Shown here: positions 3,460-35,757 of the stretch, in pieces
Layout of the letters: each line of letters opens with the position of its first letter
Numbering within the stretch: position 1 is the stretch's first letter
Assembly (NCBI GenBank): GCA_035525045.1
Contig: DATLEX010000304.1
Coordinates: forward strand, 1-60,478
Direction of reading: 5' to 3'
Source: Thermoanaerobaculia bacterium
GTDB taxonomy: Bacteria; Acidobacteriota; Thermoanaerobaculia; Gp7-AA8
Length of the DNA: 60,478 bases
Translations under genes and position numbers: made by a program
The notes under the pieces: model-generated
The model's database searches: none
Told to the model about the DNA's origin: nothing
Seen by the model: the letters and a program-made list of their open reading frames with translations, nothing else

Positions 3460-3535
3460 TGGAGCGGGCGACGAGATTCGAACTCGCGACCAAGAGCTTG
3501 GGAAGCTCCTACTCTACCAACTGAGCTACGCCCGC
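3460..3535 (-). tRNA. tRNA-Gly (anticodon CCC)
   Basis: The reverse complement reads GCGGGCG-TA-GCTC-AGTTGGTA-GAGT-A-GGAGC-TTCCCAA-GCTCT-TGGTC-GCGAG-TTCGAAT-CTCGT-CGCCCGC-T-CCA. This is a 76-nt cloverleaf with encoded CCA and anticodon loop TT-CCC-AA. Confidence 0.95.
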
Positions 3536-21925: not shown

Positions 21926-22001
21926 TGGAGCCGTTGACCGGACTTGAACCGGTGACCTGCTGATTACGAATCAGCTGCTCTACCAACTGAGCTACAACGG
22001 C
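21926..22001 (-). tRNA. tRNA-Thr (anticodon CGT)
   Basis: The reverse complement reads GCCGTTG-TA-GCTC-AGTTGGTA-GAGC-A-GCTGA-TTCGTAA-TCAGC-AGGTC-ACCGG-TTCAAGT-CCGGT-CAACGGC-T-CCA. 76 nt. Confidence 0.95.
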
Positions 22002-25459: not shown

Positions 25460-25536
25460 GCGCCCTTAGCTCAATTGGACAGAGCATCAGACTTCGGATC
25501 TGAGGGTTGGGGGTTCGAGTCCCTCAGGGCGCGCCA
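25460..25536 (+). tRNA. tRNA-Arg (anticodon TCG)
   Basis: GCGCCCT-TA-GCTC-AATTGGACA-GAGC-A-TCAGA-CTTCGGA-TCTGA-GGGTT-GGGGG-TTCGAGT-CCCTC-AGGGCGC-G-CCA. 77 nt. Confidence 0.95.
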
Positions 25537-33656: not shown

Positions 33657-34669
33657 GCATCGACGCCCGAAAGATCGGCGACTTCGGGATCGGCACTTAC
33701 ATCCGGGGCCTCCTGGGAGGGCTGGCGCGGTACGCCGACGAGGAGGACTACGTCGTCCTGGCTCCGGCCGCGGCCCGGCCGCTCATCCCCCGGCGCTTCG
33801 AGCACGTGGTCCTCGACGCGCCGCACTACTCGATCCGCGAGCTCTTCCTGGTCGGGCAGGCGGTGAGGCGCGCGGCGATCGATCTGCTGCATGCGCCGCA
33901 CTACGTCATCCCGCTGACCCGCCGCCCGGTGGTGGTGACCATCCACGACCTGATCCACCTCCATCAGAGGCATGGCAACCCGTTCGCCTCGCTCTATGCG
34001 CGGACGATGCTGGCCCGGGCCGTGCGCAGGAGCGCGCACATCCTCACCGTCACCGAGGCGGTGAAGCGGGAGATCGTGGCGAGGTTCGGCTGCCCGGCCT
34101 CGAAGGTGACGGTGACGCCGAACGGCGTGGACGAGCGGTTCCGGGCCGCAGGGCCGAACGCTCATCCCTCCCCCTACTTCCTCTACGCCGGCAACGACAA
34201 GCCGCACAAGAACGTCGACCGGCTGGTTGAGGCCTTCGCCCTCGTGCGCGGACGCCGCGGCGAGACGGCGCTGGTGCTGGCGGGCAGCCGCTTCGAGCGG
34301 CATCAGGGGCGCGACGGCGTCATCACCCCCGGCTTCGTCGACGAGACGGAGCTGGCCTCGCTCTATCGCGGGGCGCTGGCGCTGGTGCAGCCGAGCATCG
34401 AGGAAGGATTCGGGCTGCCTGCCGCGGAGGCCATGGCCTCCGGCGTGGCGGTGATCACCTCGACGGCGCCGGCGCTGGTGGAGATCACCGGCGACGCGGC
34501 GCTGCACGCGGACGCGTTCTCGATCGAGTCGCTGGCGGAGGCCATGCTGCGCATCGCCGGCGACGACGAGCTGCGGCTGCTGCTGGCGCGGCGCGGCATG
34601 GAACGAGCGCGGTCGATGACGTGGGACCGATGCGCGGAATCGACGCGGGGCGTGTACCTGGCCATGTGA
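33647..34669 (+). CDS. Glycosyltransferase family 4
   Basis: MRIGIDARKIGDFGIGTYIRG. EGFGLPAAEAMASGVAVIT. The start overlaps the previous GT by 10 nt. Confidence 0.85.
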   Translation: MRIGIDARKIGDFGIGTYIRGLLGGLARYADEEDYVVLAPAAARPLIPRRFEHVVLDAPHYSIRELFLVGQAVRRAAIDLLHAPHYVIPLTRRPVVVTIHDLIHLHQRHGNPFASLYARTMLARAVRRSAHILTVTEAVKREIVARFGCPASKVTVTPNGVDERFRAAGPNAHPSPYFLYAGNDKPHKNVDRLVEAFALVRGRRGETALVLAGSRFERHQGRDGVITPGFVDETELASLYRGALALVQPSIEEGFGLPAAEAMASGVAVITSTAPALVEITGDAALHADAFSIESLAEAMLRIAGDDELRLLLARRGMERARSMTWDRCAESTRGVYLAM

Positions 34670-34718
34670 AACAGCGTGGAACACCCGCGTCCCATTTTGA
34701 TTTTGATAAACAAATGTC

Positions 34719-34747
34719 TTGACAATATCTTTTATTGATCGCATATT
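34719..34747 (+). promoter_or_regulatory. Strong sigma70-type promoter: TTGACA, 17 nt, CATATT, with an upstream A/T (UP-like) tract
   Basis: TTGACA at 34719-34724 and CATATT at 34742-34747. The upstream attttgattttgataaacaaatg is very AT-rich in a GC-rich genome. Confidence 0.5.
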
Positions 34748-34935
34748 TACGACTAGAAAAATGATGATCGCCAGAAACTGGACGATGAAGTCAAAGACTG
34801 TTGATGGTCGTCAGCATCGGTGTCCCCTCTTTTTCCCCTCCCGAACGAAATCAAGTCTGCCGGCGCAATCCGGCGCTTTTTGCCAAGAAGACGCGACCGG
34901 GAGGTCCCGTACGGCATGAAAGGTGGTGAGTTCTG

Positions 34936-34995
34936 ATGGCAGCCAAGAAGAAGTCTTCCAAGAAGGCCAGCAAGAAGTCCTCGAAGAAGAGATAA
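34936..34995 (+). CDS. 19-codon Lys/Ser-rich mini-ORF (MAAKKKSSKKASKKSSKKR): tiny polycationic protein or regulatory leader peptide
   Basis: ATG preceded by AAAGGTGGTGA (34919-34929, 6-nt spacing). Nine Lys, all AAG. TAA at 34993-34995. A perfect intrinsic terminator lies 30 nt downstream. Too short for statistical gene calling. Confidence 0.45.
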   Translation: MAAKKKSSKKASKKSSKKR

Positions 34996-35024
34996 CCATC
35001 ACCACATATCTGGGGAGTTGTTTC

Positions 35025-35052
35025 GCGGGGCCTTCGGGCCCCGCACCTTTTT
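35025..35052 (+). terminator. Rho-independent terminator GCGGGGCC-TTCG-GGCCCCGC followed by ACC-TTTTT
   Basis: An 8-bp perfect GC stem with a TTCG tetraloop and a T5 tract, read directly. Confidence 0.7.
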
Positions 35053-35097
35053 GGGGACCCGGGCAACTTTTTGTCCCCCTCATCCGTTCTAAAGAAC

Positions 35098-35757
35098 ATG
35101 CGCGCAGCCATCGCCGTCGCCCTTTTCCTCAGCACCGCCTCCGCCATGGCCGAGGAGCGGGTCCTCAACCGCTTCGAGTCCTCCGCCGCCGGGCCGGCCG
35201 TTCGCCGGGTGGTGGTCGACCTCCCCTCCGCGGAGCTGATTATCCGCAACGGCCCGCCGGGCCGCCTCGCCCTCACGGGCGTCGTCACCCGTGAGCCCGA
35301 CGGCCTCCGCAGCCGCGACAAGCAGCAGCGAATCGTCAACGACACCAGCGTGGAGATTTACCTGCGAGGTGAGGAGGCCATCGTCCGCCGCCACTTCGGC
35401 CCGCAGGCCCAGGGATGGCGCGCCCAGTCCTTCAGCGACTACAAGGTGTCCCTGGAACTGCCGCCGGGCGTGAACCTCGACGTCAAGACCCGCACCGGCG
35501 ACGTCTCCATCGAGGGCGCCTTCGGCGACGTCGACGTCGACCTCCGCGCCGGGGAAGTCGACGTGCGCCTCCCCCGCGCCGATGTCCGCGAGCTCCGCGC
35601 CTCCTGCCGCATCGGCGAGGTGCGGACCAACATCGGCAATGAGATCGTCGAGCGGGAGGGCCTCTTCCCCGGCCGGACCCGCTACCTCAACCCCGAGGGC
35701 CGCTACTTCGTGAACGTCCATGCCACCGTGGGGGAAGTGCGGGTCGAGCTGAAGTGA
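35098..35757 (+). CDS. DUF4097-like (putative adhesin / toastrack beta-helix) exported protein
   Basis: Signal peptide MRAAIAVALFLSTASAMA. Repetitive GDVSIEGAFGDVDVDLRAGEVDVRLPRADVRELRASCRIGEVR pattern typical of the family (recollection). Confidence 0.72.
   Translation: MRAAIAVALFLSTASAMAEERVLNRFESSAAGPAVRRVVVDLPSAELIIRNGPPGRLALTGVVTREPDGLRSRDKQQRIVNDTSVEIYLRGEEAIVRRHFGPQAQGWRAQSFSDYKVSLELPPGVNLDVKTRTGDVSIEGAFGDVDVDLRAGEVDVRLPRADVRELRASCRIGEVRTNIGNEIVEREGLFPGRTRYLNPEGRYFVNVHATVGEVRVELK

Follow-up and report, generated by a model that had tools for sequence, protein, structure and literature searches.

The question raised by this locus is what is specified by an AT-rich interval, and by the short lysine-rich reading frame that follows it, immediately upstream of a DUF4097/ECF operon in an otherwise GC-rich stretch of Thermoanaerobaculia DNA (the window, by which we mean the whole 60,478 nucleotides that were analysed). 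The genes downstream encode a DUF4097-like protein (weak Pfam match), a YgaP-like transmembrane protein, an ECF sigma factor and a zf-HC2 anti-sigma factor. A sequence-only reading of the window had listed the AT-rich stretch, a promoter, a Shine-Dalgarno sequence (SD), the ORF, a terminator and a first hairpin, along with a C/U tract at 34824-34842 and GGGAGG at 34899-34904, all of which are present as listed below. It offered three interpretations, of which our analyses uphold one, a tiny gene overlooked by automated callers, speak against another, an attenuator of the ECF operon, and leave the third, an sRNA of ~130 nt, weak.

The features are given here with the evidence for each, A2 being an alignment of 29 synteny-ascertained genome loci and A3 an alignment of 68 non-redundant sequences.

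34666 to 34682, + strand: direct-repeat box GTGAAAC-AGC-GTGGAAC, a putative activator site overlapping the stop codon of the upstream GT4 gene.
34694 to 34718, + strand: A/T-rich, UP-element-like tract ATTTTGATTTTGATAAACAAATG (GC 0.32-0.40; ATTACGATTTTNATAAACAAATGC family-wide).
34719 to 34747, + strand: sigma-70-type promoter TTGACA-17-CATATT (-35 at 34719-34724, -10 at 34742-34747).
34762 to 34813, + strand: 5'-terminal hairpin P1 of the transcript, UGAUGAUCGCC ... GAUGGUCGUCA, enclosing a smaller CCAG-AAA-CUGG hairpin (RNAalifold).
34824 to 34842, + strand: C/U-rich, anti-SD-like tract CCCCUCUUUUUCCCCUCCC (alignments A2 and A3).
About 34858 to 34881, + strand: P2 hairpin GCCGG-CGCAAU-CCGGC, then U5 (compensatory pair changes).
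34881 to 34916, + strand: P3 domain, with a UGCC...GGCA closing helix, GCG/CGU and GACC-GGGA-GGUC (alignments A2 and A3).
34919 to 34929, + strand: SD AAAGGTGGTGA (= AAAGGUGGUGA), 6 nt before the ATG at 34936 (read in the sequence).
34936 to 34995, + strand: mini-gene MAAKKKSSKKASKKSSKKR, stop TAA (translation and at least 139 orthologous in-frame loci).
34996 to 35021, + strand: 3'UTR with a post-stop anti-SD-like segment CCAUCACCAC and the motif UGGGGAGU (35011-35018).
35025 to 35052, + strand: intrinsic terminator GCGGGGCC-UUCG-GGCCCCGC and U5 (covarying stems).
35063 to 35088, + strand: ECF-type promoter GCAACTTT ... CGTT of the DUF4097 gene (ATG at 35098), outside the unit.

The GC content of positions 34650-34800 is 0.32-0.40, compared with ~0.72 on either side. 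The promoter at 34719-34747 is one of two promoter-like sites in a 4-kb stretch, where 0.2 are expected, and across the whole window just six sites, counting both strands, reach 10/12 or better; the predicted transcription start lies near 34754-34756. Ranking SDs across the window by strength was uninformative, since stronger duplexes arise by chance in G-rich coding DNA.

The unit, ~300 nt in length, was found in the window, in 28 Thermoanaerobaculia MAGs and on at least 120 soil metagenome contigs, all members of the family being uncultured MAGs or metagenome contigs. It is kept whole in at least 139 independent loci, in the order direct-repeat box, A/T tract, TTGACA promoter, structured leader, SD, mini-ORF, UGGGGAGU 3'UTR and terminator. 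The manner in which these loci were collected bears on their value as evidence. The MAG loci (n=42) were retrieved solely via the neighbouring DUF4097 protein, with no part played by the mini-ORF, and 28 of the 42 have an in-frame mini-ORF at the same position, which is the outcome of the synteny comparison at orthologous DUF4097 loci that the sequence-only reading had proposed. The metagenome contigs were retrieved with a leader-only pattern that omits the ORF and the 3'UTR motif, and 108 of them carry the mini-ORF in frame. Judged from these comparisons, the arrangement of features is far beyond chance and the mini-gene unit is common to well over a hundred soil Acidobacteria.

Conservation extends to the 5' flank of the unit. 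The direct-repeat box, with the family consensus GTGGAAC-N3-GTGGAAC, is situated ~50-65 nt upstream of the -35 and is conserved in the 29 genome loci; it is found at no more than two mismatches in 70 of the 124 elements having enough flank. TTGACA is unchanged in 29/29 genome loci, a sense promoter is detected at the equivalent site in nearly every one of the 68 non-redundant members, and the SD is unchanged in the 29 synteny-found loci save for one T->C (L042). The sequence TGGGGAGT-GT shows no variation in A2, and almost every metagenome member has it even though it lies outside the search pattern. The locus is single-copy, syntenic and not mobile: in the 0.9 Mb of sequence searched we detected no second copy or paralogue of the unit and no further GTGGAAC box sites that might represent a regulon.

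The mini-ORF has 19 codons in the window, nine of them Lys, every one AAG, and five Ser. Its orthologs encode 94 distinct peptides of 17-35 residues in 17 different lengths, and the frame, whose fate in relatives the sequence-only reading had proposed to follow, is retained in all loci despite the length indels. The pooled composition of the 94 peptides is K 47%, A 22%, S 20%, G 7%, T 2% and P 2%, with no acidic (D/E), hydrophobic or aromatic residue in any of them. The peptides follow the pattern M-A-[A/T/S]-K-K-(small-small-K-K)n-K/R, in which nothing is fixed beyond an initial M-A and a terminal KK[K/R]. Of the 113 stop codons, 110 are TAA. Start, stop and frame survive the indels, and substitutions are biased toward synonymous change, with differences at codon positions 1/2/3 numbering 2094/1265/3947. 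Serine is encoded by TCN (322) and AGY (113) codons, with switches between the two classes. Based on these constraints on composition, frame, stop and Ser codon class, the comparison shows that the peptide itself is under strong protein-level selection, and we consider it highly probable that the mini-ORF is a genuine small protein-coding gene, independent of its neighbours, whose mRNA is structured and conserved. The contrary idea, that the frame arose by accident within regulatory, non-coding DNA and that its AAG-rich stretch matters only as RNA, draws on the fact that stop-free stretches are common in a 72% GC genome (another frame here is open for a median of 54 codons). Such an accident would have to account for 17 lengths all in frame between a fixed ATG and a TAA directly after KK[K/R], for the excess of third-position changes, for the TCN<->AGY switches and for the complete exclusion of ten or more amino-acid types, and we consider its probability negligible. 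The proposal of a polycationic protein gene missed by callers is thus strongly supported by the conservation of frame, start, TAA and composition in 94 peptides.

The mini-gene is missing from gene calls and from the databases searched, and is new to annotation. There was no gene call in the mini-gene gap on three annotated contigs. Ten orthologous peptides were looked up by exact match in a 15-billion-protein collection and none was present (the look-up has a minimum of 20 residues, so the 19-residue peptide of the window was left out). Profile searches of Pfam and NCBIfam with six peptides returned nothing at E <= 10 except a meaningless match at E = 4.8, and no chain was matched in a profile search of the PDB with the peptides. 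At the RNA level, Rfam 15 at the gathering threshold identified only tRNAs in the whole window, a permissive search of the element region gave an irrelevant best match (E = 0.54), and there was no match over the element in nine other members. Literature searches found no earlier description of the mini-gene.

The RNA flanking the ORF is more conserved than the peptide, and the UTRs are structured. In the consensus helices 93.7% of cells are paired, compared with 21-55% in slid controls; double changes occur at ten pairs, and the covariation score was reached by 0 of 500 shuffles. P1 has 94.5% of cells paired, and its closing pair switches between UA and CG in 14 sequences of the RNAalifold alignment. 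P2 has 95.6% of cells paired and three pairs with compensatory changes, and P3 shows a compensatory C-G to U-A change in three sequences. The P3 loop at 34899-34902 is a GNRA tetraloop whose only variants are GGGA, GUGA, GAGA and GCGA, with the sole exception of AGGA in L101. P3 is part of a near-invariant block of ~60 nt. The P3 block is invariant or nearly so in the 29 A2 loci, and its positions upstream of TCCCGTA also hold in the 68 A3 sequences, where the apparent invariance of its 3' ~25 nt is inflated because those positions were fixed by the search pattern. P3 and the SD block hardly vary, and therefore most of their pairs are uninformative for covariation. The leader was one of the features that the sequence-only reading had wished to see compared among relatives, and it proved more conserved than the peptide, with covarying helices.

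The earlier reading had overlooked that conservation at this locus is highest in the RNA flanking the ORF, and that this RNA is structured. Two other candidates were considered here and rejected. Small ORFs within the leader, MKGGE[H/F] (overlapping the main ATG) and MPRSATGRSRTA (ending in ATGA), have their frames broken by 1-2-nt indels in many members; we place the conservation at the RNA level because such indels break every small upstream ORF. The 3'UTR sequence GGGGAGUCGUAC resembles GGGGUGAAGUCGUAAC of 16S rRNA, and the scores did not exceed those of shuffles; comparison of leader and 3'UTR with E. coli 16S and 23S rRNA likewise revealed no resemblance above shuffles (z <= 0.8).

The C/U tract varies in length and sequence and is always C/U-rich (A2/A3). 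Its predicted partners are the SD (GGUGAG, 88% of cells) or GGGGAG of the 3'UTR, and thermodynamic prediction has the SD paired in almost every member when the whole RNA is folded. No SD partner was consistent: depending on the member, prediction pairs the SD with the C/U tract, with the segment after the stop or with the ORF. The occluded SD, the small ORF and the strong terminator are also what a module similar to type I toxins would have, in which SD sequestration and a 5'-3' fold-back silence the ORF until processing activates it, and in the majority clade of A2 the sequence GCGAUCAUCA after the stop codon matches the complement of the 5'-terminal UGAUGAUCGC at every position. However, this complementarity is not kept family-wide, a hydrophobic or membrane-active toxin is at odds with 94 peptides lacking a single hydrophobic residue, and the locus has neither the multiple copies nor the mobility of such modules. 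No sigma-70-like promoter is conserved on the minus strand (five scattered matches in 68 members). We judge a toxin module to be extremely improbable.

Because conservation is stronger in the UTRs than in the peptide, the main functional product may be the RNA itself. On this view the transcript would serve as a regulatory or dual-function RNA: its C/U tract would act as a seed on the ribosome-binding sites of targets, the AAG repeats and the 3' U-tail might bind a chaperone, and the ORF would modulate the RNA or yield a secondary product. The covarying helices and the GNRA tetraloop are consistent with this, as is a C/U tract that is always there while free in sequence and length, in the manner of seed-bearing linkers. 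P2 with its U-run could also release a 5' fragment of ~125 nt, which is essentially the sRNA that the sequence-only reading had envisaged as ending at the first hairpin; however, a run of at least four U after P2 occurs in only 16 of the 68 non-redundant members and U5 only in the clade of the window, so that the P2 terminator is not conserved and the proposal is weak. Strong protein-level constraint on the ORF and the single copy of the unit also count against RNA as the main product. This account is compatible with the reading that we prefer and so does not exclude it; as an alternative to it, we regard it as unlikely.

The remaining interpretation of the sequence-only reading was that of a ribosome-sensing leader peptide whose Lys codons govern attenuation and read-through into the downstream DUF4097/ECF genes or, in other genomes, a CHASE2 cyclase gene. 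The layout of ORF, terminator and gene on one strand fits this, as do Lys codons amounting to 47% of the ORF, a strong SD and a conserved frame. The neighbouring genes are nevertheless difficult to reconcile with it. The DUF4097 gene has its own promoter, GCAAC-N16-18-CGT[AT], in 35 of 41 loci, starting 33-36 nt before the ATG in 34 of them and at 46 nt in one more, while the same pattern has a background of 0.7% of 80-nt windows; it is kept in 6 of 12 loci that have no mini-gene at that site. Sigma and anti-sigma genes follow DUF4097 only in the window genome, and in other genomes the gene downstream of the unit is the CHASE2 cyclase gene rather than DUF4097, the unit being fully conserved whichever gene follows.

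The terminator hairpins, whose stems covary extensively, are strong in every member, with a mean energy of -24 kcal/mol over 66 members (range given as -20 to -30 kcal/mol; -20 kcal/mol in the window), and no other sequence pairs consistently with the 5' arm. Neither RNA truncated before the terminator 3' arm nor the alignment of members revealed a conserved antiterminator, and a covarying one is excluded because the preceding segment is invariant while the terminator arms covary. Furthermore, only small residues occur outside the Lys positions, a limitation that codon sensing would not call for, and the downstream genes are unrelated to lysine metabolism. At the cyclase-type loci the gene starts only ~5-25 nt past the terminator U-run, which leaves no room for a promoter, and there some read-through coupling may exist. 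As a general explanation, attenuation is very unlikely. The comparison of loci instead shows the unit to be self-contained and monocistronic (34666-35052), and without control over the neighbouring DUF4097/ECF operon, which is served by a promoter of its own.

Our preferred explanation, to which as a whole we assign a probability of roughly 60%, is that the unit encodes a disordered polycationic micro-protein of 17-35 residues (19 here, ~47% Lys) under two layers of control. Expression is expected to be very high, based on the -35 with its A/T tract, the 5' hairpin, the 11-nt SD, the AAG codons, the TAA stop and the terminator. The GTGGAAC-N3-GTGGAAC repeat upstream of the promoter is probably a transcription-factor site, where a regulator would bind. 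The ~180-nt leader (P1, C/U tract, P2 and GNRA-capped P3 beside the SD) and the 3'UTR would form the second layer, and in the modelled folds they most likely gate translation through SD occlusion; the conserved leader would be the site of feedback or stress control of peptide synthesis. The peptide, in turn, may be an abundant, counter-ion-like binder of polyanions, whether RNA, ribosomes, DNA or polyphosphate, and might be likened to a free-standing histone-H1 tail or a tiny ribosomal-protein-like peptide. It is the composition that suggests this polyanion-binding function, which we put forward tentatively, as rather less probable than its opposite; as a best guess, the peptide is a polycation made in abundance under translational control and bound to nucleic acid or ribosomes. 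A bolder formulation, that it represents a new class of free-standing ~20-residue poly-lysine counter-ion peptides produced in quantity from a dedicated structured mRNA with a feedback or sensor leader and acting on ribosomes, RNA, the nucleoid or polyphosphate, we regard as doubtful.

A more specific assignment would be a lineage-specific tiny ribosomal protein similar to bL37, bS22, Thx or eL41, with the leader as its autoregulatory operator. Very small basic ribosomal proteins found in certain phyla provide a precedent (for example PMC10081302, PMC6133939). The size and basic charge of the peptide are suitable, the expression signals are similar to those of ribosomal-protein genes, and the leader is ultra-conserved, as ribosomal-protein operators are. 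Against this, a ribosomal protein would be expected to have a non-repetitive sequence of fixed length, and here the peptide is of low complexity, spans 17-35 residues and is fixed only at its termini; neither the rRNA comparisons (z <= 0.8) nor the PDB search lends support. This assignment appears improbable.

If the bolder formulation above is true, a single transcript, specific to a widespread soil Acidobacteria lineage, would be novel both as an RNA motif and as a micro-protein family. The locus points to an annotation blind spot, as a gene in at least 139 loci of an abundant uncultured soil lineage is one whose tested peptides and RNA are missing from the 15-billion-protein collection and Rfam. 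The operon annotation is corrected as well, the DUF4097/ECF operon being driven by its own ECF-type promoter and not by the leader. A low-complexity poly-Lys peptide of variable length inside an almost invariant structured mRNA is an uncommon and testable combination, and if the peptide turned out to be a polycation associated with ribosomes or the nucleoid, the known tiny, abundant constituents of cells would gain a new type.

The mini-gene has partial counterparts in several known systems. In transcript layout, on which the likeness rests, it resembles SgrS/SgrT, RNAIII/hld and SR1/SR1P, which are also structured, terminator-ended RNAs of ~300 nt with a very small ORF and an exposed C/U tract; unlike in these, the coding part of the mini-gene is clearly under protein-level selection. 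With the trpL, hisL and thrL attenuators it shares a short ORF rich in one codon, an intrinsic terminator and a co-oriented gene, whereas here no antiterminator is conserved, the gene that follows differs between genomes and has a promoter to itself, the peptide composition is selected and there is no link to lysine metabolism. The cspA-type mRNAs similarly place a small, strongly expressed gene behind a conserved leader of ~160-180 nt with a possible structural switch, but the mini-gene has no sequence or Rfam similarity to them and its product is unrelated to cold-shock domains.

For the peptide, the closest parallels in size are bL37, bS22, Thx (bTHX) and eukaryotic eL41, which have 20-35 residues and are very basic, missed by gene callers, lineage-restricted and highly expressed. 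Theirs are defined sequences that fit rRNA pockets, in contrast to the variable, low-complexity repeat of K with A/S/G observed here. In composition, the parallels are the Chlamydia Hc1 and Hc2 proteins, Pseudomonas AlgP and the C-terminal tail of mycobacterial HupB, all of which are Lys/Ala-repeat, histone-H1-like sequences. Like the mini-gene product they have KKAA/PAKK-type repeats and are polycationic, disordered and presumably nucleic-acid-binding. However, these are proteins of at least 100 residues or tails on folded domains, whereas in the Thermoanaerobaculia unit the repeat is the whole protein of 17-35 residues, and it comes with its own promoter, structured UTRs and terminator.

Every element that the sequence-only reading had described was found on reading positions 34400-35400 of the window, including the AT-rich stretch, where GC content falls from ~0.72 to 0.32-0.40 around 34650-34800. 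The features, in order along the window, are:

ends at 34669, GT4 glycosyltransferase gene upstream of the mini-gene (domain search)
34666-34682, direct repeat GTGAAAC-AGC-GTGGAAC, overlapping the TGA stop codon (34667-34669) of the GT4 gene
34719-34747, + strand, promoter with TTGACA (34719-34724), a 17-nt spacer and CATATT (34742-34747) (sequence read and promoter scan)
34858-34881, + strand, weaker hairpin followed by T5 (terminator scan)
34919-34929, + strand, SD AAAGGTGGTGA, 6 nt 5' of the ATG at 34936
34936-34995, + strand, mini-ORF, translated as MAAKKKSSKKASKKSSKKR and then stop
35025-35052, + strand, terminator GCGGGGCC/GGCCCCGC plus T5 (terminator scan)
35063-35088, ECF-type promoter motif, 3' of the mini-gene terminator
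35098-35757, DUF4097-like gene (weak match), first in an operon with genes for a YgaP-like TM protein, an ECF sigma factor and a zf-HC2 anti-sigma factor

Scanning 4 kb gave two promoter-like sites, this promoter included, where 0.2 were expected; over both strands of the entire window, six sites including this one match at 10/12 or better. No Rfam family matched the mini-gene region of the window or nine further members; across the whole window Rfam and ARAGORN gave three tRNA genes and nothing else, namely Gly-CCC (3460-3535), Thr-CGT (21926-22001) and Arg-TCG (25460-25536).

The window DUF4097 protein has hundreds of homologues, named by their sources as Thermoanaerobaculia (Acidobacteriota) MAG proteins. 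A profile from 23 DUF4097 homologues yielded 42 loci from species-representative genomes, selected solely via the neighboring DUF4097 protein and independently of the mini-gene. At the corresponding site, 28 of these 42 loci have a Lys-rich mini-ORF that is in frame and 19-35 codons long. A 25-nt pattern drawn from the leader only (TCCCGTA..GGC.ATGAAAGGYGGTGA) retrieved at least 120 metagenome contigs, nearly all from soil, and in 108 of the 120 listed there is a full mini-ORF of this kind with the matching 3'UTR motif and a terminator after it; the search pattern includes none of the three. The mini-gene is widespread in soil Thermoanaerobaculia, and a search of the window and of 0.9 Mb of loci gave no second copy. 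In two metagenome contigs (L068 and L157) the leader and first codons (MAAKKK / MATKK) continue into a long ORF, that of L157 encoding a CHASE2 cyclase-like protein; these fusions are either assembly chimeras or deletions that joined the beginning of the mini-gene to its downstream neighbor. Flanking DNA of related loci gave two matches with no bearing on the mini-gene, a group II intron domain above gathering (46 bits; MAG locus L010, 6134-6206, - strand) and a guanidine-II riboswitch-like element just under it (31.8 vs 32 bits; L006, 4952-4996, - strand).

Among the 139 elements listed, the coding sequences take 113 distinct forms and the peptides 94, in 17 lengths (17-35 aa); every peptide begins M-A-(A/T/S) and finishes KK(K/R). 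Their composition is K 47%, A 22%, S 20%, G 7%, T 2%, P 2% and R 0.5%, with acidic, hydrophobic and aromatic residues and Asn, Gln, His and Cys excluded, apart from a single Leu in what may be an N-terminal extension. Codon positions 1, 2 and 3 show 2094, 1265 and 3947 differences, respectively, Ser is encoded by TCN 322 times and by AGY 113 times, and TAA is the stop in 110 of the 113 distinct coding sequences. The composition, codon-position and Ser-codon patterns argue for selection on a translated product and would be unexpected for a merely purine-rich RNA; by these measures the mini-ORF is of the translated type. Ten orthologous peptides taken from other loci were all absent from ~15 billion predicted proteins (the look-up takes a minimum of 20 aa, so the window's own 19-aa peptide was not among the ten), the peptides had no match in Pfam, NCBIfam or PDB, and no gene is called in the 324-494-nt gap holding the mini-gene in three annotated long contigs. 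The coding-type pattern, the absence from the protein collection and the uncalled gap support the proposal of a tiny polycationic protein gene overlooked by automated callers.

The RNA flanking the ORF is even more conserved than the ORF itself in alignments of 29 genome loci (A2) and of 68 non-redundant MAG and metagenome sequences (A3). The order is a direct repeat, GTGGAAC-N3-GTGGAAC, then the A/T tract and an invariant TTGACA; the family consensus of the repeat has a 10-bp period resembling winged-helix response regulator sites, and no further copies were found in 0.9 Mb of loci. In both alignments the leader consists of a 5'-terminal hairpin (P1, 34762-34813 in the window), a C/U-rich tract of variable length, a second hairpin (P2, 34859-34881) and a nearly invariant block of ~60 nt, UGCCAAG..GCGCGACC-GNRA-GGUCCCGUACGGCAUGAAAGGUGGUGA, while UGGGGAGUCGU is invariant 3' of the stop codon. 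The terminator arms covary freely. In A3 the proposed helices have standard pairs in 93.7% of cells, vs 21-55% with slid partners, and both-sided changes in ten pairs; none of 500 shuffles reached the observed covariation score. The loop of the third hairpin (P3, 34881-34916, adjoining the SD) varies among GGGA, GUGA, GAGA and GCGA, with AGGA in locus L101 as the lone departure, a pattern characteristic of GNRA tetraloops, and in the P3 stem a C-G pair switches to U-A. On this comparative evidence the leader is structured. Overlapping coding does not explain its conservation, since small ORFs in the leader are disrupted by 1-2-nt indels (A2 and A3). Many members have a 6-codon ORF (AUG AAA GGU GGU GAG NNN stop; window 34913-34938) across the SD, its stop overlapping the main AUG (UAAUG/UGAUG); it is probably incidental, as its frame is lost with a 1-nt shorter spacer. 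Folding of full-length RNAs predicted a paired SD in almost every member, and its partner changes from member to member between the C/U tract, post-stop segment and ORF; SD occlusion is therefore plausible in these models, with a partner that is not constant. Leader and 3'UTR showed no similarity above shuffles to E. coli 16S/23S. In five loci (L017 2790-2900, L018, L020, L062 and L085) a second, near-identical terminator hairpin directly follows the first.

The sequence-only reading had also considered an sRNA of ~130 nt ending at P2, beside a separate mini-gene. P2 is real, having compensatory changes in A3; a U-run of at least four follows it in just 16 of 68 members, the window's clade among them. 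We grade this reading as weak; a prematurely terminated RNA of ~125 nt is possible in the window's clade but is no family feature.

An ECF-type motif, GCAAC-N16-18-CGT(A/T), starts 33-36 nt 5' of the DUF4097 ATG in 34 of 41 loci and 46 nt 5' in one more, against a background of 0.7% of 80-nt windows. Written more fully, the conserved motif reads GCAAC(C/T)(C/T)T-N-CGT(A/T) (window 35063-35088; same position in L002-L042, at the frequency just given), and it is also present in six of the 12 loci without a mini-gene at the DUF4097 site. This suggests that DUF4097 is controlled as part of an ECF sigma regulon, with autoregulation in the window, whose sigma and anti-sigma genes come after it. In L013 (~960-1006), L016, L024 and L029 the -35 GCAAC of this promoter lies inside the mini-gene terminator loop (GGCCGGGGCAACCCGGCC), so that the two units overlap at their junction. 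An attenuator governing the ECF operon had been proposed from the order of ORF, terminator and operon. The terminators of the family have a mean of -24 kcal/mol, and the 5' arm found no consistent antiterminator partner in RNA ending short of the 3' arm. This lack of an antiterminator, the DUF4097 gene's own promoter, the variable gene order and the occurrence of YgaP, sigma and anti-sigma homologues after DUF4097 solely in the window's own genome among the loci compared led us to reject attenuation of the ECF operon. Judged from its motif, the downstream operon has an independent promoter.

DUF4097 lies directly after an M48 peptidase gene in 13 MAG loci, and in two such genomes (10 kb flank) the order is three GT4 genes, mini-gene, CHASE2 adenylate cyclase, 217-254-aa protein, M48 peptidase and DUF4097. 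The mini-gene-cyclase junction recurs in about ten metagenome loci among the matches listed. The window lineage is without the cyclase-to-M48 segment, which is why its mini-gene abuts DUF4097. Since gene order varies 3' of the mini-gene, the constant neighbor is the upstream GT4 cluster. More widely (L165 3025-10660; L166 3059-10660; L021 1244-2770), opposite-strand plsX-rpmF-yceD lies 5' of the three tandem GT4 genes, the CHASE2 protein is an adenylate/guanylate cyclase and the 217-254-aa protein has no Pfam hits. The cyclase start codon is ~5-25 nt past the terminator U-run (L021 1168-1244, L074, L055, L165 6532-6603), with no obvious promoter of its own in those loci, and the cyclase may depend partly on read-through. 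Loci with and without the cyclase conserve the unit to the same degree, so driving the cyclase in this way cannot be the unit's main role.

As judged by these comparisons, the mini-gene is a conserved monocistronic unit with its own promoter and terminator, constituting a new small-protein family and a new structured mRNA motif; no earlier description was found in the literature. The original observation is confirmed and its interpretation partly supported, the protein-gene reading standing. The consensus -35, A/T tract, 5' hairpin, 11-nt SD, TAA stop and strong terminator point to high expression. A regulator would act at the direct repeat, and leader and 3'UTR would control translation. The peptide, we speculate, is an abundant polycation binding RNA, ribosomes, DNA or polyphosphate and possibly acting in feedback on its own leader. 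A type-I toxin was also considered; the absence of a conserved sigma-70-like antisense promoter from the 68 non-redundant members and of any hydrophobic residue argues against it. The unit would fit a known type of gene, one for a small basic protein preceded by a regulatory leader. Its nearest precedent is the very small basic ribosomal proteins of other phyla, from which the mini-gene peptide differs in being low-complexity and length-variable.
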